From a virus: a DNA stretch of 64,000 bases. The stretch is from IMG/VR virus record IMGVR_UViG_3300009503_000002, one strand, 5' to 3'. Positions 471-60,561 of the stretch are shown one piece after another. How positions within the stretch are numbered: the first letter of the stretch is position 1; each line of letters begins with the position of its first letter. The notes under the pieces were generated by a model that searched no databases, had not been told where the DNA came from, and worked only from the letters and a program-made list of their open reading frames with translations. Made by a program: the position numbers and the translations under genes.

Positions 471-1385
471 TCATAGGAGCTTCGGCTCATTTGCTTTCCG
501 CCAGACTATTTCCACACGTGGCACTTTGGCCAGCATTCTGCCTGTGCCTTTCAAGTCATTCTTGCGAGTTGGGGCAGCTGCTTTGCAAAATGTCTTGATT
601 TCGCGACGCTCCCAACCTGCTTCTTCCAGAGGCTTGTAGACTGGATGGTCATATCCTGATAGAACAGCTGAGCCCTGAATTTGCAATAGGATTTCCACGA
701 GCTTCTGGTGGTGACCGATATCTGCTTCATGGTGGTACTTATTCGCATCCTTACGAGTTTCTGGAACATAAGGAGGGTCAATGTAAAAGACTGTCTGTGG
801 TGTATCCCAGTACTGAATCACCTCCAGGGCGTCTCTGCATTCAAGGTTCACCCGCGATAAGCGGTCATGCCATCTCCGCAAGAAAGTCTTTCGCGCGCGC
901 CATCTTAACGATGCCTGAGTGCTGGGAACTGTAAGTGCACGACTCCACCTCCCTGGTGCTACCTGATGCAAATCTGCTGAGATAGATTGGTTCGTAACAG
1001 TATAAAACGCCCAGGCTCTTTCGACAGGGTCCGCGCTTTCTAATAGCTCAATAGCCCTTTTGAACTCAGCGCGTGAGTATGGTGTCCAAAAAATTCGATG
1101 GCAAAACTGGTCAAAGGTCTCAGGGTTCTGTAAGACCCGAAAGACGTTTATTACTCGTTCATCCAAGTCATTAAGCACGACTATTGGATAAGTTTCTCGC
1201 AGGTGCCAGAAAATCGATGCTGCCCCACAGTACGGCTCTACATAGATTTTTCCAGGCGGGAGCAGAGGAATAATATGTTGTGCTAGATGGGTCTTTCCGC
1301 CGTAATAGTTGAATGGTTGCATAAACCTTTTGCTCCCTGGGTTATGCTCCAACCACCATTCCAGTTCGCCTGTGATAGTTGACAT
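471..1385 (-). CDS. DNA N6-adenine methyltransferase, D12/Dam class (copy 1)
   Basis: 304 aa. YYGGK near the N-terminus, EPYCGAASIF AdoMet-binding motif, FYIDPPYVPETRK with the DPPY catalytic motif. Confidence 0.85.
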   Translation of the reverse strand: MSTITGELEWWLEHNPGSKRFMQPFNYYGGKTHLAQHIIPLLPPGKIYVEPYCGAASIFWHLRETYPIVVLNDLDERVINVFRVLQNPETFDQFCHRIFWTPYSRAEFKRAIELLESADPVERAWAFYTVTNQSISADLHQVAPGRWSRALTVPSTQASLRWRARKTFLRRWHDRLSRVNLECRDALEVIQYWDTPQTVFYIDPPYVPETRKDANKYHHEADIGHHQKLVEILLQIQGSAVLSGYDHPVYKPLEEAGWERREIKTFCKAAAPTRKNDLKGTGRMLAKVPRVEIVWRKANEPKLL

Positions 1386-2002: not shown

Positions 2003-2899
2003 ATGGCACGCCTACGTTCCCCTATCCACTGGCTAGGTGGCAAGACCCGCCTAGCATCCAAGATAGTAGAAATCATTGATGAGATTCCGCACCGAGTTTA
2101 CTGTGAACCCTTCGGTGGTGGTGCATCCGTCCTCCTCGCGAAGAGGCCTAGCAAGGTCGAGGTTTATAACGACATTGACAGCGGGCTAGTCAACTTTTTC
2201 CGTGTGCTAGCTGACCCAGTGCTTTTTGAGAGGTTCTACGAGCTGGTTTCGACATTCCCGTTCTCGCGTGAGCTGTACTCGGAGTACTTCGAGACATGGG
2301 CGGAACAGGAGGACCCTGCCATAATGGCAGCGCAATGGTTCTACATTGCGAGACAGTCATTTGGTGGAAAACTGAAAAGATATAATTGGGCAGTTTCTGT
2401 TAGAGTGAATCACTCATTACGTAGATGGCGACGGCCAATTGCCCAATTGCCTGAAATCCATCAACGTCTGCTGTCTGTCGCGATTGAACATGTAGACTGG
2501 CGGCATGCAATCGAGCTTTACGATTCAGACGAGACGTTGTTCTATTTAGACCCTCCCTATCTGCCTGAGACGAGGAAAGAAGGTCTCGGCGCTTCGTATG
2601 CTCATGAACTATCACGTGAAGACCATGAAGAACTACTGCAAATCCTGGCTTACAAGATTAAGGGCTCGTTTGCAATTAGTGGTTATGAGAATGAACTATA
2701 CGATAGTATTCTGCTTCCCATCGGTTGTAAGAAGTACAAATGGGAAATCACCTGTGATTTTACACCTCGAACTAGAAGCATGGGCACACGAGGCAGGAAG
2801 ATAGGGCAAATGCAAGAGCATAGACGCGCCGAATGTCTCTGGGTTCTTGGACGAGGAACTGGGCAGTTGAAGTTACCACTGGAGACAGTAGAGAGATGA
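2003..2899 (+). CDS. DNA N6-adenine methyltransferase, D12/Dam class (copy 2)
   Basis: WLGGK, EPFGGGASV and FYLDPPYLPETRK motifs; clearly paralogous to 471-1385. Start uncertain: ATG 2003 or TTG 1988, with no strong SD. Confidence 0.85.
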   Translation: MARLRSPIHWLGGKTRLASKIVEIIDEIPHRVYCEPFGGGASVLLAKRPSKVEVYNDIDSGLVNFFRVLADPVLFERFYELVSTFPFSRELYSEYFETWAEQEDPAIMAAQWFYIARQSFGGKLKRYNWAVSVRVNHSLRRWRRPIAQLPEIHQRLLSVAIEHVDWRHAIELYDSDETLFYLDPPYLPETRKEGLGASYAHELSREDHEELLQILAYKIKGSFAISGYENELYDSILLPIGCKKYKWEITCDFTPRTRSMGTRGRKIGQMQEHRRAECLWVLGRGTGQLKLPLETVER

Positions 2900-4909: not shown

Positions 4910-4938
4910 TTGACAAACTTGGAAAACTGTAGTAAAAC
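4910..4938 (+). promoter_or_regulatory. possible promoter (weak -10)
   Basis: TTGACA (4910-4915), 17 nt, TAAAAC (4933-4938), upstream of ATG 4967. Confidence 0.3.
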
Positions 4939-4966
4939 GTTGGTAAAACTTAGGGAGGAACGTGAG

Positions 4967-5323
4967 ATGGCTAAAAGAACTATCACGCTAAGAGGCATAC
5001 CATTCACACGCAAGGTTGGATGGAGAGGCGACGAAGTGCATGTCAAACCAACGAGTCCCACAGAGGGCGTCATCAGTTGGTCAAACTGCAAGAAGATGCC
5101 AGCAGGAACAAAGGTAAAACTCCCAGGATGGTATGAGATATATGATGAATATATATGGGACGAGCCGATTATCTTCAAGACGCAGGAAGTAACCGTCCGC
5201 GAGTTATTCTACCAGTTTCTGTTGTTGGAGTGGGACATTGCTGAGACACCTGTAAATCGTTTTGGGCAGACATTAGTGCCTCCAAAGGCTTTGAAGAGAC
5301 TTGAGGAGTTTGAGGAAGACTAA
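4967..5323 (+). CDS. small protein, member A of a four-gene paralog family (GTxVxLPxW motif)
   Basis: ATG 4967 follows GGGAGGA. Contains PAGTKVKLPGW, and its C-terminus resembles member C. Confidence 0.65.
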   Translation: MAKRTITLRGIPFTRKVGWRGDEVHVKPTSPTEGVISWSNCKKMPAGTKVKLPGWYEIYDEYIWDEPIIFKTQEVTVRELFYQFLLLEWDIAETPVNRFGQTLVPPKALKRLEEFEED

Positions 5324-5330
5324 AAGTGTT

Positions 5331-5381
5331 GCGCCAAAGCCGGTACTGGCTGTGTACCGGCGCGGCGCTTTTTCGTTTTTT
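5331..5381 (+). terminator. rho-independent terminator
   Basis: Hairpin GCGCC..GCCGGTAC-TGGCTGT-GTACCGGC..GGCGC followed by TTTTTCGTTTTTT. Confidence 0.6.
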
Positions 5382-5470
5382 CAATGCCCGTAAGGGCATT
5401 ACCGGTACGGCCAGAGCGCGGTAGCCGCGCCGGTAAAGATAGTAAAGGCCGCGCGAAAAGGAGGTTTGTG

Positions 5471-5998
5471 ATGCAAAGCATGGTGTTTTTGCGGGAGACC
5501 CCGTACAACCGTCATGGTTGCACGGGGAGAACAGTGGCAGTTAGGCCACTCACTGCCACTGTCGGAGTCGTAGTATGGGTGGGAGTGCCCTGCTACATCT
5601 GTGAAGAAAAGCAGGACGCACCCCCGATTCCACCAATCGGGACAATCGTAGAACTACCCGATTGGGGGGTAGTCAAGAGGTGCTGGGAGGGCGAGATAGA
5701 GGGAGAGGATGTTTTATGCTCACTAAATGGAGAGCAAGTACCCCTCTCCTCCATACTCACGAAGGAGCCCCTAACCTGGGCGACTGCCGCGCTAATGTGC
5801 GGCAAGTCGCACAACATGAGTCTCATCCGGAATGTGTTCCTTCCGGATGGAATCGAAGCCGGGCCGGACTGCACACTGGTCTGGCCTAGCAAATTGGTGG
5901 TAATCTACCGGGACCCACTGCGGGACCTGGTAGAAGATTTTATCTCACACAGAGTTGGGTTCGCCGCCCTGCGGCGAGCGTTGGAGGGGGTGTATTAG
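5471..5998 (+). CDS. small protein, member B of the GTxVxLPxW paralog family
   Basis: ATG 5471 follows AAAGGAGG. The ORF-track start at 5384 runs through a hairpin and was rejected. Contains PIGTIVELPDW, and its C-terminal IYRDPLRDLVEDFISH matches member D. Confidence 0.65.
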   Translation: MQSMVFLRETPYNRHGCTGRTVAVRPLTATVGVVVWVGVPCYICEEKQDAPPIPPIGTIVELPDWGVVKRCWEGEIEGEDVLCSLNGEQVPLSSILTKEPLTWATAALMCGKSHNMSLIRNVFLPDGIEAGPDCTLVWPSKLVVIYRDPLRDLVEDFISHRVGFAALRRALEGVY

Positions 5999-6067
5999 CC
6001 TTCATTTTTTCGCCCTAGCCGTTTGCCGGTGGGCGGCTAGGCATGATAGATAACACCGGTTGCTACC

Positions 6068-6104
6068 AGCGCGCTGGCCTAAACCAGCGCGCTTTTTATT
6101 TTGG
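6068..6104 (+). terminator. rho-independent terminator
   Basis: 10-bp stem AGCGCGCTGG/CCAGCGCGCT with loop CCTAAA, followed by TTTTTATTTT. Confidence 0.65.
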
Positions 6105-6157
6105 TAATGCCCGTTAGGGCACTAAAAAACAAACATATAAAAAGGAGGTATACGAAA

Positions 6158-6532
6158 ATGGCCATTATAACTCTCAAGTCTGGGCAGTGGCGTTATCACA
6201 GCACTGTGGTAATCATCGAGACCACGAGTGCTACAGAGGGGACTATGATAGGGGGCGCGACATGTTCGGGCGGCCTTGTTTGCACTGAAAAAAGTCCCAT
6301 TCCAGTTGGGACGCGCGTCCGCTTGCCAAATTGGGACAGCGTGTATGTCCCTGGCAAGCGAGGGTGGATGGAAAGCACAAAGGTCAGGTATAATGGTGGG
6401 CGAAAAATAACACTAAAAACGCTTCGCAAGTTGTCGCCGGTGTTAGACTGGTGGGTTGCCAGCGCCACTGTTGACCTGGCCGGCAACACATTGATTCAAG
6501 TAAATAGTTTGGAGCGCCTTGCCGGTGCGTAA
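6158..6532 (+). CDS. small protein, member C of the GTxVxLPxW paralog family
   Basis: ATG 6158 follows AAAAGGAGG. Contains PVGTRVRLPNW. Confidence 0.65.
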   Translation: MAIITLKSGQWRYHSTVVIIETTSATEGTMIGGATCSGGLVCTEKSPIPVGTRVRLPNWDSVYVPGKRGWMESTKVRYNGGRKITLKTLRKLSPVLDWWVASATVDLAGNTLIQVNSLERLAGA

Positions 6533-6579
6533 GTGCCGGCAAGAGACGCCCTTTTATTTTCTGAAAGGAGGTTACTGCG

Positions 6580-6648
6580 ATGGGTGAGGGAAAAAAAGTG
6601 TATATTGTCTATACGAGTCCTGTCCGCATGACGGTTACGGCTTGGTGA
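6580..6648 (+). CDS. possible 22-codon leader ORF coupled to member D
   Basis: ATG 6580 has a strong RBS (GAAAGGAGG). It contains an A7 run, and its TGA (6646-6648) overlaps GTG 6645 of the next ORF. Confidence 0.3.
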   Translation: MGEGKKVYIVYTSPVRMTVTAW

Positions 6649-7016
6649 TTTATATTGACGCACTAAGCCGTGATGTCGGTTACGTGATGGGAGGCGGCAG
6701 TTGCAGAGTTTGTTCAGATGGCCGCGCGCCGGTTTTGAATGGAACGATTGTGCAACTGCCGGACTGGGCAGATGTTTTGCGGGGGGAGTTTTGTCAGGAC
6801 CCGCGGACTGGGCGGGTGGTGCGGGTAACTGACCTTTCTGCAAAGGTGCGTCTGACCTGGGAGGTGGCGGTATACCGGTGTGGTGGAGGCACATTAGTAC
6901 GGCCACGTGATTTGCGGGTATTGTACCGTGATGCGTGGCGTGATTTTATAGACGATTACTTTGAGCATTGGGGTAGCAAACCGTGTCAAAGCGGTGGTAG
7001 GCGCAGGAAAAAGTGA
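6642..7016 (+). CDS. small protein, member D of the GTxVxLPxW paralog family
   Basis: Contains LNGTIVQLPDW and VLYRDAWRDFIDDYFEH. It has no SD of its own; the start (TTG 6642 or GTG 6645) is probably reached by coupling to the leader ORF. Confidence 0.55.
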   Translation: MVIYIDALSRDVGYVMGGGSCRVCSDGRAPVLNGTIVQLPDWADVLRGEFCQDPRTGRVVRVTDLSAKVRLTWEVAVYRCGGGTLVRPRDLRVLYRDAWRDFIDDYFEHWGSKPCQSGGRRRKK

Positions 7017-7048
7017 AAGATTTGGTGTATATAAAGGAGGATGTTGCG

Positions 7049-7270
7049 ATGCGCAAGCGGGAAGTTTGTAAAAAAGTGCGGGAATTGGATAGGGCGGGGG
7101 CAAGTGCTTTGGTGATATACCGGTGCTTGTTTCCGCGGGACAGTGTACCGGATTACCAACATATTTTGAAAGCCGGTACGCTGTATTATCAGTATGGTGG
7201 CGCTGACAGAGAGTTATGGCAAGATTTTGTTAGGCTTGCCGTGGAAGCGGGTTGGAAAGGAGGCCAGTGA
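7049..7270 (+). CDS. hypothetical small protein
   Basis: ATG 7049 lies 8 nt after AAAGGAGG. 73 aa. Confidence 0.5.
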   Translation: MRKREVCKKVRELDRAGASALVIYRCLFPRDSVPDYQHILKAGTLYYQYGGADRELWQDFVRLAVEAGWKGGQ

Positions 7271-7404
7271 TGCGTGACGATATGTTAGCGGGACTGATGC
7301 CGTTTGTTGGGTTTTTAGGGCTCATTATCTTTTTACTCATCCTGGTTGCAGCGGGTTGGTTGCAACCGGACTTAGGCTGGGTCTATCACTTACTTGGGAG
7401 GTAA
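7270..7404 (+). CDS. 44-aa single-pass membrane peptide
   Basis: ATG overlaps the preceding TGA. Hydrophobic core FVGFLGLIIFLLILVAAGW. Too short for the ORF track. Confidence 0.4.
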   Translation: MRDDMLAGLMPFVGFLGLIIFLLILVAAGWLQPDLGWVYHLLGR

Positions 7405-7407
7405 AAA

Positions 7408-8535
7408 ATGGAGCGCACTGTGGTTGTAAAACAGGCTATCGCCATAGCAGTGCAGGCCGATGTGCCGGTATTGCTATGGGGTGGGGTCGGCGAGGGAAAG
7501 TCCTCGTTTGCACGGCAATTGGCCGCGCAGTTAGGTTGGGGGATTGTTACGGTTGTCGGGCAACTGCGGCAACCGACAGACTTCCTCGGTATTCCTTTTC
7601 CTCAGGAGCTTCCTGGTGGCCGGCTTGGCACGGTATATGCCGTGCCGGACATTGTGCTGGAGTTGGAGCGGATTGCGGAGGCCGGCCAAGTCCCTCTACT
7701 GTTCCTAGATGAGATAACCTTCCAGGATGAGTTGTTGCAAGCCGCGATGTTTCGCCTTGTCCTGGAGCGGGTGGCCGGCAATTACCCGCTTCCAGCGGGG
7801 ACGCGTGTATTGGCCGCCGCGAACCCGCCAGGGGTTGGTGGGTCACGCGCGTTGTCGCCGCAATTGGCTAACCGGTTCTGCCACGTTGAGTGGCAATCGT
7901 CGGCTAGCGATTATATCAAGGCATTGCGGACGGGGCAATGGGAATTCCGGTTGCGTCTGTTGCCGGATGATTGGAAGGCGCGTATTCCGGAGGCCGCTGG
8001 CAAGATGGCGGACTTCCTGGAAGCGCAACCGGCGGAGGGCGCTGGGATAGGCGCGTACAAGCCGGAGGAGGGGTGCTGGGCGTTTCCGACTCCTCGGACG
8101 CGCGATATGGCGGTGCGCTTGCTCGCGGCTTGCGAGGCAGCGGGCGCGCCGTTAGCGGTACGCGATGTATTAGGCGAGGGTTGCGTAGGTGCGCATGAGT
8201 GGCAGCGTTTTGCGCAATTTTTGCGTCAACGAGGCCATAAGCCGCAAGATTACCTAAGCGGCAAGGCGCAATTGCCCCAAGATAGCCTATTGTTGCCGGA
8301 TGTCCTAAGTCGCATTGAGGCGCATGTGCGGGACAATCCGGAGAAAGATGTTTTTTTGGCGGCCTTGCGTCTGATTTCGCAGTTAGTGGAACATCCTGAC
8401 CTGGCCGTGCCGTTTGTGCGCAATGTTCGTGACGCCATACCTGACCAAGCGGCAATCGCGGCTTGGTTACGGGACGCGCCGGATGTTGCTGATTTGATTC
8501 GGCAGTTACTGCAGCGGACGGCGGGAGGTGACTAA
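7408..8535 (+). CDS. MoxR-like AAA+ ATPase (AAA_5/CbbQ-NorQ type)
   Basis: Walker A GGVGEGKS, Walker B LLFLDEITF, single AAA module with a helical C-terminal region. RBS GGGAGG. Confidence 0.85.
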   Translation: MERTVVVKQAIAIAVQADVPVLLWGGVGEGKSSFARQLAAQLGWGIVTVVGQLRQPTDFLGIPFPQELPGGRLGTVYAVPDIVLELERIAEAGQVPLLFLDEITFQDELLQAAMFRLVLERVAGNYPLPAGTRVLAAANPPGVGGSRALSPQLANRFCHVEWQSSASDYIKALRTGQWEFRLRLLPDDWKARIPEAAGKMADFLEAQPAEGAGIGAYKPEEGCWAFPTPRTRDMAVRLLAACEAAGAPLAVRDVLGEGCVGAHEWQRFAQFLRQRGHKPQDYLSGKAQLPQDSLLLPDVLSRIEAHVRDNPEKDVFLAALRLISQLVEHPDLAVPFVRNVRDAIPDQAAIAAWLRDAPDVADLIRQLLQRTAGGD

Positions 8536-9731
8536 TGGACGAGGCAATGGTAAAACTTCGGCAGGCAAAGGCCGTATTGCTTCGGACGGGCAATGCGGCC
8601 TGGTTGGAAAGATTGCTTGTGCCTGCTCCGCTGATTGAGAGCGACGCTTGCCCAACGCTGAGTGTGGATATGCATGGGCGGGTGTATTTCAATCGGGAGT
8701 ATGTGTTAGAGCGGAGTATGGGCGAATTAGTGGCCATTCTGTGCCACGAGATGGAGCACCTAAGGAGGCTACACTTTGCGCGTGCGCCATATGGCGCGCA
8801 AAGTGACGGCGGCGTTTTCCAGCGCTGGAACGTATGCGCTGATGCAGAGATAAACGATGATTTGGAGTTGTGGTTTCGGTACAGTCCGGACATTACGTTG
8901 CCAGCAGGCCGGATAACGCCACAAGGGTTAGGGCTTGCACCTGGCCTAACGGCGGAGGAGTATTTTAGACAATTGCCGGCGGGACAGACGCTGCCGGACT
9001 GTGGGACAGGTGGCTCGGCGAGTGACGGGGTGCAACGGGCTTGGGAGTTAGGCGCGCCGGATGAGGAGCACCCTGGCCTAACAGAGCGGGAGATTCGGGA
9101 AGTGGTCAAGGAAGCCGCTTCCAAAGTGCCTCCTGGGCGTCGAAGCGCGCAAGGCGCTGGCCGTGAAAGCCGCAGCGAGTTACGGCAATTTGGGGACGTT
9201 GACGACGCACGTTGGGTGCAATTGGTGGTAACAGAATTGCGCCGTGAGTTGCGGCTAGGGACAAGTAGGTATGACATGATGCGGCCCAACCGGCGCTTGA
9301 TGGGTGTTACGCGTGCTGTTTTGCCGGAGGTGGTACGGGACAGACGGCGCGCGTTGGTAATTGTTTTAGATGTTTCGGGCTCGATGTCTGAAAGCGAGCT
9401 CGCCATTGCCGAATCTATCGCAAAGCAAGCCGTAAACGATTATCGGGACGTTTGGTTTGTGGCTTGCGATGCGGATGTGAAAGCGAGCGTGAAAGTTACG
9501 CGGGGCGCTGATATTCGGCAATGGGCGATTGGCGGGGGTGGGACTAACCTAAACCCTGGCCTGGTGGAAGCGGTACGTTACCAACCTGATGTGGTATTGC
9601 TGATAACGGACGGCGATGTGGGTAAGCCGTATATCGAGAGCAATCCTGGCACGTATGACCTGATAGCGGTATTGACCAAGCCTGGTAGGGGGACTGCTCC
9701 CGATTGGGCAAAGCGCGTGATAAGGAGGTAA
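8535..9731 (+). CDS. zincin-like metallopeptidase domain fused to a von Willebrand A domain (DUF2201-type partner of MoxR ATPases)
   Basis: HEMEH (HExxH) in the N-terminal half. VIVLDVSGSMSE (MIDAS DxSxS) in the C-terminal half. Start overlaps the ATPase stop (TAATG). Confidence 0.85.
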   Translation: MDEAMVKLRQAKAVLLRTGNAAWLERLLVPAPLIESDACPTLSVDMHGRVYFNREYVLERSMGELVAILCHEMEHLRRLHFARAPYGAQSDGGVFQRWNVCADAEINDDLELWFRYSPDITLPAGRITPQGLGLAPGLTAEEYFRQLPAGQTLPDCGTGGSASDGVQRAWELGAPDEEHPGLTEREIREVVKEAASKVPPGRRSAQGAGRESRSELRQFGDVDDARWVQLVVTELRRELRLGTSRYDMMRPNRRLMGVTRAVLPEVVRDRRRALVIVLDVSGSMSESELAIAESIAKQAVNDYRDVWFVACDADVKASVKVTRGADIRQWAIGGGGTNLNPGLVEAVRYQPDVVLLITDGDVGKPYIESNPGTYDLIAVLTKPGRGTAPDWAKRVIRR

Positions 9732-9734
9732 AAC

Positions 9735-10358
9735 GTGAACAGATGGTGTGAGAGTTGCAAGATTGATAACTTCCTGGAATGCCCATTACTTTTGCTAGCG
9801 TCAAACAGTCCGGCGACTGTTTTATATACGCTCAATGACCGGTTGTGGGTTGAGCGGTTGGGTGATGATTGCCCACGCGGGCTTTGGCCAAGTAGAGAGT
9901 GGCGCACTGACTATCTCACAACGGTAGCGGTATCTATTGTGCTGCCATTATTGCAACCATGCCCCGATTGCCCCTTACCTGACAATTACGAATCGTTCTA
10001 TCAATCACGGGTAATGGCGATGTTGGACTTAGTGCGGGTGCATAAGTCTCCTGAGAGCATTGCGTTTGTGGGGTACTACGACCATGCGCTACAGATTACG
10101 GACTCGCTGGAATGGACGCCATATCATACTTGGGACAGTAAGCGGGTGTTTTGGCAATTGCACGGTGACCTGTGGCTTACGCCGGTTTGCATACCTGATT
10201 ATGCGCGCCGAATTCAGGTCAATGTTGACGCACGTGATGGAAGGGGTTGGGTTGAAGGTATAAAGTGGCAGTTTCGTGACCATGACCTACTGTGTGACTT
10301 GGTTATCGCGCGGGCGTATAGGAAGTTGCCGGACGAAGGTGTGATTTGGATGGTGTGA
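9735..10358 (+). CDS. Cys-rich paralog 1 of 5 (N-terminal CxxC..C, central CPxC)
   Basis: GTG start after AAGGAGG. Contains WCESCKIDNFLECP and QPCPDCP. Confidence 0.65.
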   Translation: MNRWCESCKIDNFLECPLLLLASNSPATVLYTLNDRLWVERLGDDCPRGLWPSREWRTDYLTTVAVSIVLPLLQPCPDCPLPDNYESFYQSRVMAMLDLVRVHKSPESIAFVGYYDHALQITDSLEWTPYHTWDSKRVFWQLHGDLWLTPVCIPDYARRIQVNVDARDGRGWVEGIKWQFRDHDLLCDLVIARAYRKLPDEGVIWMV

Positions 10359-10359
10359 G

Positions 10360-10995
10360 ATGGACGATTTATTTGACTTGCTAGATGATGGGTTTGGCAA
10401 CGAGGCACTGTGCGAGGGGTGTAAGGCAACGAGTCCTCTTGATTGTGCGCGGCTTGTGCTTTCACAACCGGTTGACCATTTGTGGAAGGAGATATACGCT
10501 GTTGACGATTATCTCAACAGTTTCACCCTGCGCCGCTGTGACGTGATGCGGGAGACGTGCAAAGTGCGGGTTGGCGATATTTTATGTCGTTTACGGCCTT
10601 GTCCGGATTGTTCCGTCTCGGATGGTGTTTCGGCTTTCCGGATTTCAGAGTTGCAGGCGCTGTTGGAGTTTTCGCGCTGGCAGAAAGGAGCGGCAAAGCC
10701 TGGCTTCCTTGACCATATGCTTGAGGTAACAGTGTCTATCAATTGGGATATAACTAACCTTTCGTTTTGGTATGTCAACATAAAGATAGAGTATAGGGTT
10801 TGCTGTAATGGGCGCACAAAGGAGGAAGGGCACACACTGGCAGGCCGGACAGGTATAGATGGGTTTCCGATTAGCCGCATTCAGAGGTATATGCAAAGTT
10901 TTCCGCAATTTCCTGGAAAACAGCGCTTCGTTGATATGGTAGTAGCGAAAGCAGAGGAGACGATTCCACCTGAGTTGTTGATACTATCTATTTAG
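10360..10995 (+). CDS. Cys-rich paralog 2 of 5
   Basis: Starts 1 nt after the previous stop. Contains LCEGCKATSPLDC and RPCPDCS. Confidence 0.65.
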   Translation: MDDLFDLLDDGFGNEALCEGCKATSPLDCARLVLSQPVDHLWKEIYAVDDYLNSFTLRRCDVMRETCKVRVGDILCRLRPCPDCSVSDGVSAFRISELQALLEFSRWQKGAAKPGFLDHMLEVTVSINWDITNLSFWYVNIKIEYRVCCNGRTKEEGHTLAGRTGIDGFPISRIQRYMQSFPQFPGKQRFVDMVVAKAEETIPPELLILSI

Positions 10996-11005
10996 GAGGT
11001 GTAAG

Positions 11006-11611
11006 ATGGCAATCTGTGATGGATGCAAAGCCGAGGAGGCGTTTGACTGTTCACTTTTGCAATTGGAGTCGAAGGGAACGTATCATCTGTCGGATATGAT
11101 TACATGTCGGGTCAACCGGCGCTGTCCCAAAGGTATTTTTCCGTCTGGGGTGCGTAAACTTGAGTTTCCGGCGCAGGCACTGATAAAAAGATTGCAACCG
11201 TGCCCTGTTTGCGGCGATATGGTGGCGGACAACCTAACGGAGTTTAGGTTGTCAACATTACAGATAGGGCTTGAGACGGCTAGGGCGCTGCCATTGCGCC
11301 TAGACCGCCATACGCCAGGGGTATTTGACCATGTGCTGATTGCGCAATCGTGCTTGCAATGGAGGCCGATTGGCTTACATGGCGGGCGGATGACAGCGTA
11401 TGTGTTGGATGGCTATATTCGGCTATGGCCGTTCTGCAGGGCGGACGTCCAAGTTCGCGTTGGCTTTTGGCTTACGTTTCAGGAGGGTTGGGAGAGGATA
11501 ATCAGGAAAGTGTACGACCATGCGCCGGCCTTCGCTGGGTTAGCGGTTCGGTTTGCCAAACAAGCGATGCAAGATATAGGCGATGCGGCAGTCCTGATTT
11601 ATGCGCTATAG
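11006..11611 (+). CDS. Cys-rich paralog 3 of 5
   Basis: The preceding TAG is embedded in TAGGAGG. Contains ICDGCKAEEAFDC and QPCPVCG. Confidence 0.65.
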   Translation: MAICDGCKAEEAFDCSLLQLESKGTYHLSDMITCRVNRRCPKGIFPSGVRKLEFPAQALIKRLQPCPVCGDMVADNLTEFRLSTLQIGLETARALPLRLDRHTPGVFDHVLIAQSCLQWRPIGLHGGRMTAYVLDGYIRLWPFCRADVQVRVGFWLTFQEGWERIIRKVYDHAPAFAGLAVRFAKQAMQDIGDAAVLIYAL

Positions 11612-11620
11612 GAGGCAAGT

Positions 11621-12121
11621 GTGTACTGTACAGTATGCTCAAAGCGCTGTCCTAGACCGACAGAGTTAGAGATAGGGGGCTTTTACAAGCAAGGCGCGAT
11701 GATTGCTTTCGGGTCATGTTGTTATGTTATCAAGCGCCGCTTGGTTCGGTGGGAGTATTTGACTGGCCTGTTTGTGAGGTGCGGGGCTTGCTTGGAGGCC
11801 GCTCAGAGGCCGCGCCTTTCGGCCTGGTTTGAGGATGCCCCGTTTAGGCCGCTGATTGATACGATTTATGGGCCGCGACAACGGGGTTATCTTTCCCACC
11901 GTTTTGAGTTTGAGATTCTTGAGAAAAGGCATGGGGCTTATTATTTATCGGCCAGACAGGTATGTACAGGCCGCACCTGGGAGTACATGTTTGGAGTGTC
12001 TGAGCCGCGACCGTTGGAGGTAGAGCGATTGCTGTTGGCCTATGACTGTCCTGAGTGGCTTGCTGAGGGGCTTGTCAAGCGATATTTTGACAGCGGAGAG
12101 CGTTTGATATGGCTTATCTAG
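11621..12121 (+). CDS. Cys-rich paralog 4 of 5
   Basis: GTG start after TAGGAGG. Contains YCTVCSKRCP and RCGACL. GYLSHRFEFEIL is shared with paralog 5. Confidence 0.6.
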   Translation: MYCTVCSKRCPRPTELEIGGFYKQGAMIAFGSCCYVIKRRLVRWEYLTGLFVRCGACLEAAQRPRLSAWFEDAPFRPLIDTIYGPRQRGYLSHRFEFEILEKRHGAYYLSARQVCTGRTWEYMFGVSEPRPLEVERLLLAYDCPEWLAEGLVKRYFDSGERLIWLI

Positions 12122-12130
12122 GAGGTTTCG

Positions 12131-12685
12131 ATGCGAAAAGAGTGTAAGGGGTGCAAGGATTTGCAATGTCCTGGCCTGCTATTGTTTTATGAGGCTAAGC
12201 AGTTGGAGAGCGGGTTAGTTGAGTGTACAGGCAACCTGTTTGTTGCCCCTAGCAATCGCTGTGCGTTGTTCAGCAAGGACGTCCTTAGACTTCCAGATGT
12301 TATGGCCAGGATTGAGCGGTGTCCCGATTGTGAACAGGCGATTGAGGCCGGCGATTTTTGGTGGGACGAAGCACCGTTTCCGACGTATATGGTGCAGATT
12401 CTCCAGCGTCCTGGTTGCCGTGGGTTTTATTCACACAGGTTTCAGATTTTGGTGGGCTGCTCAAGGGCTGAGTTTGACGGGCCAAATGGTCAGAGGATAA
12501 GTTGTGTGTTGCTTGAGGTGGTGTTCAGGCGGGTGTGCGATAGGCAGACAAAGGGTAGCCGGTTTGAGGTTTTACGGCTCGCTGAGCTGCCGCCGTTGCT
12601 CAAGCGGGAGTTTCCAGGGCCGCTGTACGAGTTGATATGTCAGAGGTGTTTAGACCGGCCTGAGTTGGCTATTGCGATGATTTAG
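12131..12685 (+). CDS. Cys-rich paralog 5 of 5
   Basis: Follows TAGGAGG. Contains ECKGCKDLQCP, RCPDCE and GFYSHRFQILV. Confidence 0.65.
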   Translation: MRKECKGCKDLQCPGLLLFYEAKQLESGLVECTGNLFVAPSNRCALFSKDVLRLPDVMARIERCPDCEQAIEAGDFWWDEAPFPTYMVQILQRPGCRGFYSHRFQILVGCSRAEFDGPNGQRISCVLLEVVFRRVCDRQTKGSRFEVLRLAELPPLLKREFPGPLYELICQRCLDRPELAIAMI

Positions 12686-12694
12686 GAGGCTAAG

Positions 12695-13558
12695 ATGGTA
12701 ATCGAACAGAGCGATGGGCGTTTCACAGTGATAGATGAGAGTGACCAAGAGGTGATTGTGTCTGACCTTAGGCTTGAGACGGGCGCTAGGCTCCTTGATA
12801 CGCTGGTGAATGCCCCGATTAGCGATTTGTACAGGCCGCGCGGCGAAGTGCGCAAGCGCCTGGTTGACTTGATAGTCCAGGAGCCGGTTGGGGTAGCCTG
12901 TACTAACTGGTTGGTCAGGGATGCGGTTTGTGAGGCCGGCCGTACACTTTTCACCTGTCCCTTTGTGGAGTTTAGGACGACTAGCACTGACCTTCTAACT
13001 GGGTCTGGAGTGAAGCTTGACCTCATCGGTGGCTGGGGCAAGTGTGTTACCGCCACCATTAGGGAAGACGTGCCTTGTATCAAGCGTAGCGTGCCATGTA
13101 ACACAATCCACAAGGGGTGGATACTGCCGCGCTCGCTTATCACCGTTCTGCTGAGCAGAACAGTTGCATGTCCAGCCTGTGCGCGGGCCACGAAGGGCTT
13201 TGAGCTCACGCCGCTTTTCCTAAAGGAGATTTTTGCAACACATTTTGCGTTTCCTTCGGGATTTCTCTCCGCGCCAGACCCTGAGCAGGCCAAGCAACTG
13301 GTTCTGGCGGTTCGGCACAAGATGCGGTTTACTCGTATTCGCATGATGGAAGCAGGCGGGCAACAACATATAGTGGGCAGGCTTACGCCGGCCTGTGGGC
13401 GTAAGTTGCCGGTCGGGAAGCCAATTCCCGTGGGCTGTCCAGGGCCAGGTGATTACTCCTACTACTGGGCAGCGGTAAGCCTACAACACTTGGAGAACAT
13501 ATCTCCTCTCGAAAAGGTTCTGCTGGATGAGGCTGGGCTTGGGATATTTATGGTGTAA
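12695..13558 (+). CDS. hypothetical protein, possibly a divergent sixth member of the array
   Basis: Has the same TAGGAGG junction and contains CPAC. Otherwise not clearly alignable by eye. Confidence 0.55.
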   Translation: MVIEQSDGRFTVIDESDQEVIVSDLRLETGARLLDTLVNAPISDLYRPRGEVRKRLVDLIVQEPVGVACTNWLVRDAVCEAGRTLFTCPFVEFRTTSTDLLTGSGVKLDLIGGWGKCVTATIREDVPCIKRSVPCNTIHKGWILPRSLITVLLSRTVACPACARATKGFELTPLFLKEIFATHFAFPSGFLSAPDPEQAKQLVLAVRHKMRFTRIRMMEAGGQQHIVGRLTPACGRKLPVGKPIPVGCPGPGDYSYYWAAVSLQHLENISPLEKVLLDEAGLGIFMV

Positions 13559-13577
13559 GGGCTGCGGTAGATATGTT

Positions 13578-14171
13578 TTACATTCCGCTTGATATGGGTT
13601 CGGCCAGGCTGCTCGCTGCGATTGCTCTGGTAGTGGATGCGGGCAAGAGTTTTCGCACCGCTTCCCTCAGGTCAGCCGCGAACGCTTCCCGCTTGTTGTC
13701 GGGCACATACTGGGCCGCGACCTGCCCGACTGCCTGTAGCACTAGACCTACTACTCCAACGTGGATGTACATATGCTTGGATGTCTCCAAGTCTTGTAGT
13801 CGCGTTGCCAGCTCCCCGATTGATTTTGCGAGGGTGGTGAGGTCGCGGTTCTCACCTTCCAGTGCCATCTCGAAAAAGCGCGAGCGAAGCACCGCCAGTT
13901 CGTATCGAAGGTTCATGAGCTCCTCATCATTCTGGAGCATGCGCATCACTAAGGCCCGTAACTGTGGGTCGAGCAAGTATATGAGGGGTGGGTATCTGCT
14001 TTCGCCGGCCAACACCTTCCCCTCGTGGAATTTGCAAGGGCCTACTCCTGGATGTTTCGTGCCCCAACCGGCGGGCTTGAGACATGGCTTTCCTACAAGG
14101 TTTTTGGCGCCACAGCGGGGCATGAAATCCCGTCTGAACCTAGTCTTTTCCCCTACGTCTTCCATTGCCAT
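13578..14171 (-). CDS. hypothetical protein with an N-terminal Cys/His cluster
   Basis: PRCGAKNLVGKPCLKPAGWGTKHPGVGPCKFHEG followed by a coiled-coil. Composition is far more protein-like than the overlapping + strand ORF 13573-14247. One of only two minus-strand genes. Confidence 0.55.
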   Translation of the reverse strand: MAMEDVGEKTRFRRDFMPRCGAKNLVGKPCLKPAGWGTKHPGVGPCKFHEGKVLAGESRYPPLIYLLDPQLRALVMRMLQNDEELMNLRYELAVLRSRFFEMALEGENRDLTTLAKSIGELATRLQDLETSKHMYIHVGVVGLVLQAVGQVAAQYVPDNKREAFAADLREAVRKLLPASTTRAIAASSLAEPISSGM

Positions 14172-14243: not shown

Positions 14244-14780
14244 ATGAGGATTTATGTTCAGCGAGAGTTGCATATGGTGAGGGCTGGCATACGGGAGATG
14301 TTGCCGGAGCACAAGGTTGTGGATACGCCAGGACAGGCAGACGTGTTGGTGTTATCGGCTGAGGCTTATGTGCCACAGGAGAAGCCGACGCTTCTCTTTT
14401 GTGCTGGCAAGTTTCCGGCCTTGGTTGGCGCTGAAGTATGTGGAATTATCCAACCCACGACGACGGCTGAGGAACTTCGCTGTATGCTCAAGGGGAAGCT
14501 GGACCCAGCGCTTGCTCTGGCGAAGTCGCTGTCCGCTAGGATTGCGATGTTATGTAAAGTACAGGAATTGCTCACGCCGTCCGAAGTGGCGGTGCTGCGT
14601 GGCTTAGCAGGCGGGCTGTCCCTGAAGGAAATATCTGAGAAGTGCTATCTTTCGTACCAGACTGTTCGGCATGCGGTATCAACTGCCTGCCGCAAGTTAG
14701 GCTGTGCAAACTCAAACCAGCTTATCATCATTGCCGCGTCTGTTTTCCCTAGCGAGGCTTTTAATAAGGAGGGGTTGTGA
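14244..14780 (+). CDS. LuxR/GerE-family transcription regulator
   Basis: C-terminal LTPSEVAVLRGLAGGLSLKEISEKCYLSYQTVRHAVSTACRKLG is a typical LuxR HTH. The N-terminal part is receiver-like but short. RBS GGGGAGG. Confidence 0.75.
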   Translation: MRIYVQRELHMVRAGIREMLPEHKVVDTPGQADVLVLSAEAYVPQEKPTLLFCAGKFPALVGAEVCGIIQPTTTAEELRCMLKGKLDPALALAKSLSARIAMLCKVQELLTPSEVAVLRGLAGGLSLKEISEKCYLSYQTVRHAVSTACRKLGCANSNQLIIIAASVFPSEAFNKEGL

Positions 14781-15553
14781 GTTCTCAAGCCATTGTGAAC
14801 CAGAAAGCAGTTCTAGATGCTTTGCGGGTATTACTGCCGCAGCGAATCCCCGTGTTGCTTGTGGGCCCGCCAGGGACAGGGAAGACTTTGATTGGGCTGT
14901 ATGCTCTCTCGTGGGAAGGTGGCAGGGTGTTACGGGTTGACTGCGGCCAGACTACTCAGCTCAGTCCACACCATCTCTTTGGAAAGGCCGGCATACTCCT
15001 AGATGAGATTCACTGCCTCAAGACGCCAGAAGCTATCTACCCACTTCTGACAGAGAACAAGGTTACCATAATCGGAACAACGACAGATGAGGGCCTGTTA
15101 CCCGAAGCGCTTCGCTCCCGTTTTTTCACCCTCTGCATGCAACCATATACCCTTCAAGACCTCACTACGATTGCGATGAGTTATGGGCTAGACCGAACGA
15201 CTGCCGGCCTGGTTGCAGAGGCCAGCCGTGGGATTCCCCGTCGTGTGGTTCAGTTTGCCGTGCTTTTACGGTTCACCGTTCCTCACACCCGCGATACATT
15301 CTACAAGACACTGGCGAAGTTTGGCTGGCCGTTAGGCCTCAGCTACCGCGAGCTCACCTACTTGCGAACCGTTGCACGGAAGCCTACTTCCCTCTCCACC
15401 CTCTGTGGCATCCTCCAGGCCGGCCCGGAAACAGTTCGTTCCACTGAGGCGTTCCTCATCTCCGCCGGCCTCGTCGAAATCACCTCCCGTGGCCGCTCCA
15501 TCACACCCACTGGCCTCGCCATCCTCCAAGAGGCTGAACAAGTCACATCCTGA
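14777..15553 (+). CDS. RuvB-like AAA+ ATPase (short form)
   Basis: GPPGTGKT, ILLDEIH and an RSRF arginine finger. The C-terminal EAFLISAGLVEITSRGRSITPTGL matches RuvB domain III. GTGA overlap with the previous gene. Confidence 0.8.
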   Translation: MSSQAIVNQKAVLDALRVLLPQRIPVLLVGPPGTGKTLIGLYALSWEGGRVLRVDCGQTTQLSPHHLFGKAGILLDEIHCLKTPEAIYPLLTENKVTIIGTTTDEGLLPEALRSRFFTLCMQPYTLQDLTTIAMSYGLDRTTAGLVAEASRGIPRRVVQFAVLLRFTVPHTRDTFYKTLAKFGWPLGLSYRELTYLRTVARKPTSLSTLCGILQAGPETVRSTEAFLISAGLVEITSRGRSITPTGLAILQEAEQVTS

Positions 15554-22139: not shown

Positions 22140-23678
22140 ATGGAAGGGTTAGAGCTCGACAAGCTTGTAGAGCGGGAGCTGCGGCGTGGCATGCGGTCAA
22201 CCGTCATCAAGACGAACTTTAAACCGCTGGAGATTGCGCGCGCAGCATTCCCCTGGACATGGGCATCGTACCAGAAAGATATCCTCGTAACACTTCTCTC
22301 TTCTTCCTGGAACCGAATGGTCATCCTCGCACCACCTCGGCACCGGAAAACTTCCTGTGTAGCTCTCTGGGCAGCGCTTGAACTGGGCAAAAACCCACAC
22401 CAGCGGATTATGGTTGCGTCTCACACACGGGACTACTCAGCCCTGCTTCTCAACCAGATTGAGGAGATAATGAAAACGCCTATCTACCGTAGGACATTCG
22501 GTGATATCCTCCCTTCTCAGTGTTACGCTGGCCAGTCAGACCAGGGCGCTTCGTTGACTTCTTCGGTTGCCCGCTGGACGACATACGAGCGCCACTTACC
22601 CAACAGGCCCGTGCACATCAAAGACCCCTCGCTTCTAGCACTCTCGCCTGAGTCGGGGACGCCAGGCTTTGGAGCCGACATCATCATCTGCGATGACCTA
22701 GTGAGCCAGGCCAACTCTTCGTCCGAGACAAAACGTCGGAACTTAGAACACTGGTTCCGTGCGTCTCTCCTCAAGCGGCTGGAGCCAAACGGCAGGTGCG
22801 TGGTAGTCGGTGCCCGCTTCTACAAAGATGACCTCTACGGTGTTTTGCTCAAGGAAGGTTGGACTGCAAAAGTCTATCGTGCATCACCAGACGCCCCGCT
22901 CTGGCCAGAAGTATGGCCTGCAGAATCCCTCCGCCAGAAGCAGCTCGAAGACCCAATCTTCTACCCAGCCCAGTATCTGCAAGACCCACAGGAAGTTGGA
23001 AGTGGCGAGTTCGACCCATCCTGGTTTCAGTTCTATACACAACCACCGCCTGTTACCGAAATGTCAATCTTCGGAGGGATTGACCCTGCCATCACTGAGG
23101 GCACTGGCTCAAGTGTCGCATATGCAGTTGTTGGCAGGACAGCAAGCGGCCAGATTCTGCTTCTCGACCTTGCCCAAGAGAGCCTCCGAGGTTCCCAGCT
23201 TCTCAACATTGTAAATCTAATCCAGGATGCCTGGGCTCCTGTAGCCATCGCATTTGAATCGAACGGCCCGCAGCAGACAATCTTAGAGATGTTACAAGCA
23301 GACCCCAACCTTCGCCCTGGGACCAACCTAATCGGAGTCCCATCCCTCGTCTCGAAATACCTCAGGCTTACGAGCATTGCGGCATATGCTCGTTCGGGGA
23401 AGATACTGCTTCCTGCTACGTTCTCTCACAACGGCGAACTTATCCCGGCAGAGATTTCATCAACTCTCCTGGAAGCTTGGGCCCGTTTTCCAGGTGGTAA
23501 GCAAGACATACTAGATGCATTTGAGAAAGCTACTACGATGGCCTTACAGGGCCCGCTCCCTGCGATGTCAACCACTAGCATTCGCCAGAACCCCAGGCGA
23601 GGCCGTTCTGCAATGGGCAAGTCGTTCCCAAGGGTGTTCGACCATGTAAAGCCAAATGTCCTCTCTCCAGCAGATTGA
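22140..23678 (+). CDS. terminase large subunit
   Basis: 512 aa. N-terminal ATPase (LAPPRHRKTS P-loop-like, ADIIICDDL Walker B). C-terminal RNaseH-like nuclease (FGGIDPA..., AIAFESNG). Sits at the head of the structural module. Confidence 0.8.
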   Translation: MEGLELDKLVERELRRGMRSTVIKTNFKPLEIARAAFPWTWASYQKDILVTLLSSSWNRMVILAPPRHRKTSCVALWAALELGKNPHQRIMVASHTRDYSALLLNQIEEIMKTPIYRRTFGDILPSQCYAGQSDQGASLTSSVARWTTYERHLPNRPVHIKDPSLLALSPESGTPGFGADIIICDDLVSQANSSSETKRRNLEHWFRASLLKRLEPNGRCVVVGARFYKDDLYGVLLKEGWTAKVYRASPDAPLWPEVWPAESLRQKQLEDPIFYPAQYLQDPQEVGSGEFDPSWFQFYTQPPPVTEMSIFGGIDPAITEGTGSSVAYAVVGRTASGQILLLDLAQESLRGSQLLNIVNLIQDAWAPVAIAFESNGPQQTILEMLQADPNLRPGTNLIGVPSLVSKYLRLTSIAAYARSGKILLPATFSHNGELIPAEISSTLLEAWARFPGGKQDILDAFEKATTMALQGPLPAMSTTSIRQNPRRGRSAMGKSFPRVFDHVKPNVLSPAD

Positions 23679-32753: not shown

Positions 32754-32797
32754 GGAAAGAAAGTGCCATATAACTGTCAAGTTTGGAAAGGAGAAGT

Positions 32798-37273: not shown

Positions 37274-38175
37274 CAGAGGACGAGATTAAGAAGGCGTTTG
37301 AAGAGATTATACTAGACGCGTATAACCAGATGGGGCGTGTAGGACAGTCAGCGCTTGATGACTTCGCACGTCTAGAAGCAATTGGACAACGCGTGTCAAA
37401 GATGCCCGTCCTTCGGCTGCCAGTCAACTATGCTGGCCTTGGCGATGCGCTCAGGGTAGTAAACGCGATGTGCAAAACATCGCTTCTTCGTTCGTTTGCT
37501 TCTTCTCTTTCATATGCAACAGCAGCTGCCATGCTTCGGCTGGCGGGATATGCGTTCATGTCGGCTGTAGCACCGGCTGTTTCAATTGAGGTGAGCGAAG
37601 ATGCCTGGTCAGTTTTGCGCAAGTTAGGCGCACTGGCTGATTCAACCACAGGCGCTGACATGCGAGTACTGACCGAGGCCGCTATCCAGTTTCACATCCA
37701 AGCTTCCGACCTAATCGCTTCAATCTTTGCAGCAAGACTGCGCCAGGTCCCTGTATCAGCGCCAACTTATTCAGCTCCCATCACTAACACAGGCTACTTG
37801 GCTAGGTCAATTGCTGTCGCGGATGCAACTCCTCGTACAGTCCGTGCGGGCGTGGTAAGGTCATTCACAGTAGGCGTGAGCCGTTCTTTCGGCCCATTTG
37901 CATATGGTGGCGCACCAGCTCTGTATGGCAAAGTTCTGAACAAGCCACTTGGCACCAGCACAAAGTATGCCAAGATTCCATTTCGTAACATTCAGTTCTG
38001 GGCTAAACAACGCGGGATTCCAGAGAGTTCTGTCCCGGCAATCTATAAGAAACTAAAGACACGGGGCGTGTATGGCCGTGGTTGGGTTATGGCTGTCTTG
38101 GAGGAGACAGACTTCGGGGTGACAAATCGCCTCTTAGGGCGAGCGGTTCGTGATGCGATTTTAAAGGTGAAGTAA
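37270..38175 (+). CDS. hypothetical protein
   Basis: ATGA overlap. 301 aa. Lies between the chaperones and the tape measure. Confidence 0.5.
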   Translation: MTEDEIKKAFEEIILDAYNQMGRVGQSALDDFARLEAIGQRVSKMPVLRLPVNYAGLGDALRVVNAMCKTSLLRSFASSLSYATAAAMLRLAGYAFMSAVAPAVSIEVSEDAWSVLRKLGALADSTTGADMRVLTEAAIQFHIQASDLIASIFAARLRQVPVSAPTYSAPITNTGYLARSIAVADATPRTVRAGVVRSFTVGVSRSFGPFAYGGAPALYGKVLNKPLGTSTKYAKIPFRNIQFWAKQRGIPESSVPAIYKKLKTRGVYGRGWVMAVLEETDFGVTNRLLGRAVRDAILKVK

Positions 38176-60445: not shown

Positions 60446-60561
60446 AATAGAGATGGGCGCTATGTCCGAGGCGGACGGATTATCAAGCCGTCTTAGCGCG
60501 TTATCAAACCGTTTCTGCGGATTTGTTTCAAGTTTTACAGTGTATGATACGGGAGGTTGAG

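Follow-up and report, generated by a model that had tools for sequence, protein, structure and literature searches.

A MoxR-type ATPase and metallopeptidase-vWA gene pair in one operon with an array of cysteine-rich paralogs in an uncultured tailed phage

In the IMG/VR record IMGVR_UViG_3300009503_000002 we analyzed a window of 64,000 nucleotides (nt), the whole stretch of DNA considered here, and found that its plus-strand block 7049–13558 consists of ten genes forming one polycistronic operon. It combines a gene for a MoxR-type AAA+ ATPase, a gene for a zincin-like metallopeptidase fused to a von Willebrand factor A (vWA) domain, and an array of six cysteine-rich genes, C1–C6, located directly downstream. 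Within the searched databases no homologue of the C proteins turned up in any other genome, and they represent a new orphan family. The earlier note on this DNA had presented the arrangement as a candidate undescribed phage system. The paralog array is indeed new, but the ATPase-vWA pair has already been described (PMC4193335, PMC7824862, PHROG 1297/1314), being the same module as gp24/gp25 of phage N4 and the corresponding pair of jumbo phages. The novelty lies in the array only. We tentatively favor, with less than even confidence, the view that the C proteins are alternative partners (adaptors or clients) of the MoxR-vWA-zincin machine. The genes of the block are as follows (aa, amino acids; MIDAS, metal ion-dependent adhesion site).

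7049–7270, plus strand: first gene of the block, 73-aa protein
7270–7404, plus strand: 44-aa peptide with one predicted transmembrane helix at aa 12–31, seen as a hydrophobic run, FVGFLGLIIFLLILVAAGWL
7408–8535, plus strand: AAA+ ATPase of the MoxR/AAA_5 clade, 375 aa, with Walker A GGVGEGKS (aa 25–32, nt 7480–7503), Walker B LLFLDEI (aa 97–103, nt 7696–7716), sensor-1 AAANP (aa 136–140, nt 7813–7827), and Arg motif LANRF (aa 153–157, nt 7864–7878)
8535–9731, plus strand: DUF2201_N zincin-like metallopeptidase fused to a DUF2201 vWA/MIDAS domain, 398 aa, with HEMEHLRRLH (nt 8745–8774; HEMEH at aa 71–75), MIDAS DVSGS (aa 279–283, nt 9369–9383), GGGGT (nt 9531–9545), and TDGD (nt 9606–9617)
9735–10358, plus strand: C1, 207 aa, CESC...C16...C46...CPDC, C-terminus VIWMV
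10360–10995, plus strand: C2, 211 aa, CEGC...CPDC, C-terminus LILSI
11006–11611, plus strand: C3, 201 aa, CDGC...CPVC, C-terminus LIYAL
11621–12121, plus strand: C4, 166 aa, CTVC...CGAC, C-terminus LIWLI
12131–12685, plus strand: C5, 184 aa with 13 Cys, CKGC...CPDC...CQRC, C-terminus AIAMI
12695–13558, plus strand: C6, 287 aa, an extra N-terminal segment of ~70 aa, no first CxxC, CPAC, C-terminus GIFMV

The earlier note had described nine joined plus-strand genes. The coupling is evident from the junctions, with genes overlapping by 1 nt or lying no more than 10 nt apart throughout the block, and with Shine-Dalgarno (SD) sites, but the count rises to ten with the 73-aa gene. The latter starts at ATG 7049, not at GTG 7013, and is preceded by an SD sequence GGAGG at 7036–7040, 8 nt before the ATG; it was also called by the pipeline, and its stop codon overlaps the start of the transmembrane peptide gene. 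From the peptide-ATPase junction to the C5-C6 junction the spacings are +3, -1, +3, +1, +10, +9, +9, and +9 nt, the ATPase stop overlapping the vWA start in ATGA. GGAGG was found 5–9 nt before the start codon at eight of the nine junctions, including the 3-nt one between the peptide and ATPase genes; C1-C2 has only GGATGG. Four of the five junctions between C genes, including the one before C6, read TAGGAGG, a sequence that contains both the TAG stop codon and the SD site. Gene callers of three data sources independently arrived at the same genes. A promoter/terminator scan predicted neither element between the vWA gene and C1, and within the array it yielded weak consensus matches only, about as many as in shuffled sequence. 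Just upstream of the block the genes are separated by gaps of >100 nt, with hairpin terminators at 5349–5366 and 6068–6093. Downstream, the block is closed by a convergent gene with a 19-nt spacer to C6.

13578–14171, minus strand: convergent gene, 197-aa product

It is alone on the minus strand in this region of the genome. Its product carries an N-terminal cysteine/HxG motif, CGAKN..GKPC...GPCKFHEG, and has no Pfam or PHROG match.

Membership of the ATPase in the MoxR/AAA_5 clade, read from its sequence, is well supported by profile, motif, and PDB matches. Both Walker motifs named in the earlier note were located, at aa 25–32 and 97–103, and its assignment to this clade agrees with the phrog_1297, Midasin, and 'MoxR ATPase' matches and with the vWA pairing. 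The protein matched phrog_1297 ('ATPase') with E 2.6e-36 over aa 7–340, while the Pfam AAA_5 profile gave 21.0 bits against a cut-off of 22 and covered only aa 20–51. A phmmer search of PDB retrieved the AAA domains of Midasin (E 1.7e-7, and 2.5e-6 over aa 9–202) and NorQ (E 0.16). Matches to the ATPase were found by tblastn in 267 phage records, including rV5-like genes annotated as 'MoxR ATPase' (E ~1e-10) and genes of PA5oct, phage G, AR9, RaK2, and the N4-like phage KPP21. With PADLOC, no known anti-phage defence or anti-defence protein was recognized among the ten proteins of the block: the ATPase reached P-loop matches of 12–14 bits, and the remaining nine proteins had none.

In the partner protein, the HEMEH and MIDAS motifs that the earlier note had combined were found at aa 71–75 and 279–283, and the proposed DUF2201-type zincin-vWA architecture is confirmed by two Pfam domains, in N-to-C order and above their cut-offs: PF13203 (DUF2201_N; 49.1 bits, cut-off 23.2, aa 8–164) and PF09967 (DUF2201; 52.3 bits, cut-off 26.4, aa 274–395). 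The protein also matched phrog_1314 (E 8.1e-37, aa 2–389), whose label 'HNH endonuclease' is a misnomer because its members are zincin-vWA proteins. In an alignment of the partner with 12 homologues, including that of phage Pokken, the residues H71, H75, H80, D103, N107, and D109 are invariant and present, forming HExxHxxxxH plus a D/E-rich EINDD segment. The MIDAS residues D279, S281, S283, T337, and D359 are likewise invariant and present. E72 of HExxH is carried by the partner, although it is not invariant among the 13 sequences. Since the zincin and MIDAS residues are all present, both domains look functional, and the ATPase and its partner are apparently active, as far as their motifs tell. 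We found 131 homologues of the partner with the same two domains; the nearest relatives are cellular, ~30–33% identical over >90% of the length, mostly from Streptomyces and other Actinobacteria. Neither the ATPase nor the partner matched an NCBIfam equivalog. In many GenBank phage records, too, proteins of the zincin-vWA family are mis-annotated as 'HNH endonuclease' or 'homing endonuclease', as in the RefSeq copies from Pokken, Piffle, RiverRider, ZC03, and relatives of PA5oct.

Relationships within the array were assessed by local-alignment z scores against shuffled sequences, leave-one-out hidden Markov models (HMMs), and hhalign. C1, C2, and C3 form the closest group (z 24 for C1 with C2, 23 for C1 with C3, and 23–24 for C3 with C1/C2), C5 is linked to C2 (z 8.9) and C1 (z 5.7), and C4 is linked to C5 only (z 7.9). 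Leave-one-out HMMs recovered C1 (E 9.8e-13), C2 (E 3.9e-16), C3 (E 2.5e-9), and C5 (E 0.0099) and missed C4. C4 and C5 also have common motifs, WFEDAPF...RGYLSHRF and WWDEAPF...RGFYSHRF, respectively (WxxxAPF, RG[YF]xSHRF). The wording 'five, possibly six' paralogs in the earlier note fits these results, C1–C5 being demonstrable paralogs connected by z scores and C6 reaching a best z of 2.1.

The common pattern of the C proteins is CxxC(K)-x(3-8)-C-x(~22-30)-C-x(~19-29)-C[PG]xC, followed by G[FY]xxH ~30 residues on and by a C-terminal I-[WYFLA]-x-[VIL]. The N-terminal CxxC was found in five of the six members, CPxC/CGxC in all six, and two more cysteines are invariant. At an overall identity of only 16–30%, the alignment contains seven invariant columns (five Cys, one Gly, and the terminal Ile) and a sixth Cys present in five members. 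Six of the seven columns lie within the first ~115 residues, and the C-terminal halves are indel-rich, requiring many gaps to align, with a conserved hydrophobic terminal tail. Cysteine makes up 3.5–7.1% of C1–C6 versus 0.0–2.5% of most other sampled proteins of the window; the exceptions are the 73-aa protein, a GerE regulator, and U2 and U4 of another family described below (2.7–4.0%). Since these cysteines are conserved in cytoplasmic proteins of such low identity, the C proteins probably bind metal via CxxC...C...C...CPxC.

Comparison with other systems places the pair in a known context. Gene 24 of phage N4, listed as 'unknown', and gp25 (vWFA) are among the 14 core genes of N4-like phages, and gp24/gp25 were reported as middle transcripts, not late ones (PMC4193335). 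As in N4, the P-loop ATPase gene directly precedes the metallopeptidase-vWA gene, with both on one strand, among non-structural middle genes; the two proteins have full-length matches to the profiles of PHROG 1297 and 1314 (E ~1e-36). In the Pokken record, a gp24-like gene and a metallopeptidase gene adjoin each other in this order, and tblastn gave matches of 23% identity, with E values as low as 3e-11, in Pokken, Piffle, RiverRider, and ZC03. In contrast to the genome studied here, N4-like phages lack the downstream Cys-rich array (in Pokken, an 85-aa open reading frame (ORF) and a dCTP deaminase gene come next), and they are podoviruses, unlike the present siphovirus with its tape-measure protein of 1675 aa. 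Group 2.2 jumbo phages encode a MoxR AAA+/metallopeptidase-vWA chaperone/co-chaperone pair, for which a role in virion assembly and processing was proposed by analogy with the tail system of Acidianus two-tailed virus (ATV) (Iyer et al. 2021, PMC7824862). They have the same combination of a MoxR ATPase and a vWA protein with an N-terminal zincin, and the PA5oct group gave direct tblastn matches; however, the two PA5oct genes are ~3 kb apart with other genes between them, and there is no paralog array. The MoxR ATPase bas54_0063 of the vequintavirus (Vequintavirinae) Bas54 was reported to be specifically required against the predicted defence system DS-28 (bioRxiv 10.1101/2025.11.20.689424, a preprint dealing with a single system). 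The MoxR ATPases of rV5-like phages, the subfamily of Bas54, are ~30% identical to the ATPase described here over aa 22–231, but this similarity is distant and limited to the AAA+ core, and the reported partner is a gene of unknown function, not a demonstrated vWA protein (10.1101/2025.11.20.689424).

A third component accompanying a MoxR-vWA core is known from the vWA-MoxR-VMAP (vWA-MoxR-associated protein) ternary conflict systems, in which this component diversifies and peptidase domains occur occasionally (Kaur et al. 2020, PMC7159879). Only the concept is alike: the VMAP systems are cellular defence systems of multicellular bacteria, and they rarely include a metallopeptidase, either among the effectors or in fusion with the vWA component. 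The C proteins and both upstream small proteins showed no resemblance to effectors or VMAP in Pfam, PADLOC, NCBIfam, and PHROGs, a set that does not include a dedicated VMAP profile, and a VMAP-type third protein is likely absent from the block. The cellular relatives of the partner always adjoin an AAA_5 gene. These AAA_5 + DUF2201 operons, from Streptomyces and other Actinobacteria and from metagenomic bacteria, have the same gene order, overlapping start and stop codons, and variable partner genes, either leucine-rich repeat (LRR) and ankyrin-repeat genes upstream or an overlapping gene for 261–317 aa downstream.

L005 2124–6815 and L007 3152–6081: LRR and ankyrin-repeat genes upstream, Streptomyces-type loci
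L006 9149–10102, L008 8356–9171, and L009 8284–9069: overlapping downstream gene, 261–317 aa, no Pfam match

The downstream gene of L008, the one that was translated, encodes a Trp-rich helical-repeat protein with zero Cys. The cellular partners are single repeat proteins, not Cys-rich paralog arrays. The combination of AAA_5, DUF2201, and a partner gene in cells looks like an undescribed three-component system.

In MoxR-vWA systems such as Midasin-Rsa4/Ytm1, CbbQ/O, NorQ/D, and RavA/ViaA, the MIDAS binds a target and the ATPase ring remodels it. By analogy, the MIDAS site of the phage vWA domain would grip a target protein, the ATPase ring would remodel it, and the fused zincin could also cleave it. 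The five to six C proteins would be produced in step with the pair. Each would dock through a constant, metal-binding half and use a variable half for recognition, and they would direct the machine to different host proteins as adaptors or, less probably, be its clients. We regard the C proteins as possible partners because of the operon coupling, this constant-plus-variable layout, and the variable partners of the cellular pairs. Such a machine would most likely serve to take over the host or to evade its defences, early to midway through infection. Action against host defence is plausible by analogy and has one experimental precedent, the reported need for the Bas54 ATPase against DS-28. In a more specific version, the paralogs would be a panel of interchangeable specificity subunits of a multiplexed, adaptor-programmed anti-defence protease, a type so far undescribed in phages. 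Docking would then occur via the metal-binding N-terminal half and the hydrophobic C-terminal tail, and the divergent C-terminal half would deliver different host immune or housekeeping proteins for unfolding and cleavage. We consider this version very unlikely.

A number of results weigh against the assignment of the C proteins as partners of the pair. The link of the array to the pair comes from the operon structure in a single genome and is unproven. A neighborhood survey of other viral loci with this vWA gene yielded no comparable tandem array. A vWA profile identified 164 places in IMG/VR viral contigs, the best 80 of which were kept, representing 78 distinct loci, 70 of them with an intact vWA ORF. 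An ATPase homologue lies directly upstream of the vWA gene in 21 of these 70 loci and within four genes upstream in most others, but a comparable array was found in none of the 70, so the arrangement is unique to this genome and not a wider phage theme. The best match of a C-family HMM among the ORFs of the 78 loci had E 0.1. Of 63 dereplicated loci, 11 have a Cys-rich gene with CxxC right after the vWA gene, compared with 13% of other ORFs (Fisher P 0.34), and the idea that a Cys-rich neighbor is a general feature of viral DUF2201 loci was rejected for lack of enrichment. Three loci considered as analogous arrays were also discarded: L064 contains endonuclease-VII-like genes beside a recombinase gene, L023 has a ubiquitin-like cassette whose E2-like proteins bear Cys-rich tails, and the ORFs of L027 are translated (ASY)n DNA repeats.

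Searches with the C family itself found no homologues. A word-indexed profile search of 5.8 billion cluster representatives (~15 billion proteins) returned only the family itself. In 1.84 billion representatives searched exhaustively with HMMER, the six members were joined only by two artefacts of tandem repeats (P0127, P0128). With C6 as a single sequence, the word-indexed search found only C6, and tblastn of C2 against 50,697 phage records found nothing. The C proteins, whole and as halves, had no match in Pfam, PHROGs, PADLOC, and NCBIfam, the best profile scores being weak (Lar and Zn_Ribbon_Prim, E ~0.8) and no profile identifying a zinc-ribbon or treble-clef type domain, and a profile search of PDB gave no match (best TniQ, E 0.57). 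AlphaFold models built with the six-sequence alignment were poor, with a pLDDT (predicted local distance difference test) of 61 for C1 and 53 for C3. Both low-confidence models predict a small beta module at the N-terminus, a helix, a sheet of four to five strands, and helices at the C-terminus. For the C1 model, Foldseek found no match (best E 1.2 in PDB and 0.13 in BFVD).

The size of the array is also less certain than its gene count suggests. C6 does not significantly resemble any of the other members (best z 2.1, missed by the leave-one-out HMM), and its hhalign E of 0.047 is little better than the 0.15 of an unrelated control. It aligns through the five Cys, one Gly, and the terminal Ile alone; its membership is possible by motif, tail, and position, and unproven. 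Nor is there independent replication of the arrangement, since three contigs from three samples are 100% identical across the 2.35 kb compared (C1–C4), an identity that is uninformative on diversification. Many structural and replication genes of the window are packed equally tightly; with dense packing common genome-wide, tight spacing alone is weak evidence of a functional unit. Finally, a second paralog family, U1–U4, is located upstream of the block.

4910–5323, 5384–5998, 6101–6532, and 6642–7016, plus strand: U1–U4, leave-one-out HMM E 1e-10 to 2e-16

U1–U4 have the common motif C..C...P.GT.V.LPDW, spacers of >100 nt containing the above-mentioned terminators, and no Pfam or PHROG match. 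This family expanded without an ATPase, so that paralog expansion may be a general habit of the phage. The C array is coupled far more tightly than U1–U4. A relationship between the U and C families was rejected (hhalign probability 0.05%). The 73-aa protein, which had no match in Pfam, PHROG, PADLOC, and NCBIfam, was considered as a truncated U paralog and rejected because the U1–U4 HMM fails to recover it.

Two of the discarded loci deserve a separate description. In L023 (IMGVR_UViG_3300010938_000039, 5260–9272), MoxR and zincin-vWA genes are followed within ~2 kb by genes for two paralogs, which combine an HPH..G..C motif of E2-like type with tails extremely rich in Cys, CECCPNC...CCI.C..YPC.C; next come a JAB/MPN-like and an E1/ThiF-like protein. 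Motif readings suggest a phage ubiquitin-like conjugation cassette beside the pair. In L027 (IMGVR_UViG_3300046788_000307, 7966–9232), overlapping ORFs of 70–100 aa with (ASY)n repeats lie directly downstream of the vWA gene; they begin with MMVA(T/I)LA, end with RLRGG, and correspond to a DNA repeat array translated in phase.

Much of this evidence also suits another explanation, namely that the C paralogs are independent small zinc-binding early or middle proteins (regulators, inhibitors of host proteins, or anti-defence decoys) merely co-transcribed with the pair. The genes adjoining the pair in other phages vary and are unrelated to the C family, Cys-rich downstream neighbors are not enriched, small CxxC proteins account for ~13% of ORFs in comparable viral loci, the tandem family U1–U4 belongs to no ATPase system, and dense packing is found throughout the genome. 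However, the array shares one tight block with the pair through junctions with the stop codon inside the SD site, whereas the U genes are widely spaced and have terminators, and cellular homologues of the pair do recruit variable neighboring partner genes. We regard independence of the C proteins as the strongest alternative, though one that falls well short of an even chance. It is rather unlikely that the pair acts as a chaperone-protease in virion assembly or maturation, with the C proteins as assembly clients or unrelated. The same domain architecture has been given this proposed role (PMC7824862), precedents are the ATV tail-assembly MoxR-vWA system cited there, for which such a role was shown, and the archaeal phage-tail assembly MoxR-vWA system listed in PMC7159879, and the PA5oct ATPase record bears the note 'ESI-MS/MS' (electrospray ionization tandem mass spectrometry). 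But the block is located among replication and regulatory genes, 8.5 kb upstream of the terminase gene, in agreement with the statement of the earlier note that it lies outside the structural part; N4 gp24/gp25 are middle and not late genes (PMC4193335); and the Bas54 MoxR gene is described as specifically needed only against DS-28, which suggests that the phage can do without it on the K-12 laboratory host and speaks against a general role in assembly.

The earlier note had listed an ordinary CobS/CobT-like pair among the outcomes that would refute it, and an auxiliary metabolic cobalt chelatase module of this kind is effectively refuted. A weak match of the ATPase to phrog_249 'porphyrin biosynthesis' (E 3.3e-4, 21 bits) spans the P-loop at aa 12–49 only, while its best family is phrog_1297 and not the CobS family. 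The partner has the zincin HExxH and scores above the curated cut-offs for DUF2201_N and DUF2201, and no CobT-type or NCBIfam chelatase family was found among its matches. Essentially excluded as well is the possibility that part or all of the array consists of chance ORFs in skewed, G-rich DNA, or that the true genes are the antisense ORFs. The plus-strand GC skew is 0.17–0.24 at 6001–14000 and 58001–64000 versus ~0.03–0.1 elsewhere, with negative values at 14–26 kb. Such strong skew produces long spurious antisense ORFs, for example 7916–9406 (496 aa) and 12682–13344 (220 aa), and the C proteins have no homologues in the searched databases. Against this, all six C starts are preceded by an SD-like site (GGAGG in five, GGATGG in C2) and four of five C-C junctions have TAGGAGG, the mutual similarity of C1–C5 with conserved Cys would not be kept by non-coding DNA, three gene-calling pipelines agree, and both antisense ORFs have zero family matches.

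To our knowledge, no mechanism is known for the phage MoxR and metallopeptidase-vWA pair. As a core pair of N4-like phages with related genes in rV5-like and jumbo phages, it is a widespread unexplained module, and two roles have been put forward for phage MoxR modules: virion assembly, which is a proposal, and action against a predicted defence system, which is a single report. If the array is indeed the partner set of the pair, its members would be candidate substrates or adaptors and a handle on the function of the module. If the two are unlinked, the array would be an orphan gene family in an uncultured phage and a reminder of how weak an argument operon adjacency is in a densely packed phage genome. 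Practical use is limited at present, as the phage has been encountered in metagenomes only.

The genome is that of an uncultured tailed phage with siphovirus-type genes, and the window covers nearly all of the 64.6-kb metagenomic contig k141_1616640 (ENA ERZ27247228), pieces of which are present in two Logan assemblies. The source samples are ERZ27247228, SRR6049666, and SRR5248875. The main structural and packaging genes are listed below.

22140–23678: large terminase
30363–32309: protease/major-capsid fusion
38175–43202: tape-measure protein, 1675 aa

No nucleotide-level relative of the region was found by blastn among the 50,697 phage records, and IMG/VR scans anchored on the vWA protein and on an AAA_24 protein revealed no close phage relatives. 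The best match of the large terminase is only 28% identical. The block lies in the non-structural arm of the genome, and its neighbors are genes for methylases, the GerE regulator, a RuvB-like protein, ERCC4, and a helicase.

Further genes were noted in other parts of the window. The plus-strand gene at 25341–29000, between the terminase/portal region and the capsid genes, encodes a 1219-aa protein that matches phrog_114 'ATP-dependent DNA ligase' at aa 523–888 (E 4.7e-17), a ligase-like domain being unusual at this place and of this size. A glycosyltransferase gene (32783–34057, plus strand; phrog_2170, E 4e-35) is located inside the structural module, right after the capsid gene. At the left genome end, two D12-class DNA adenine methyltransferase genes (471–1385, minus strand, and ~2003–2899, plus strand) surround an HTH_17 gene, according to Pfam assignments in the contig gene table. 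Directly after the block, at 14244–15553 on the plus strand, the gene for the GerE/LuxR-type regulator and that for a RuvB-like AAA+/winged-helix protein overlap by 4 nt. The regulator also shows weak similarity to sigma-70 region 4 and to phage sigma factors, and the two genes may constitute a phage-encoded transcription switch.

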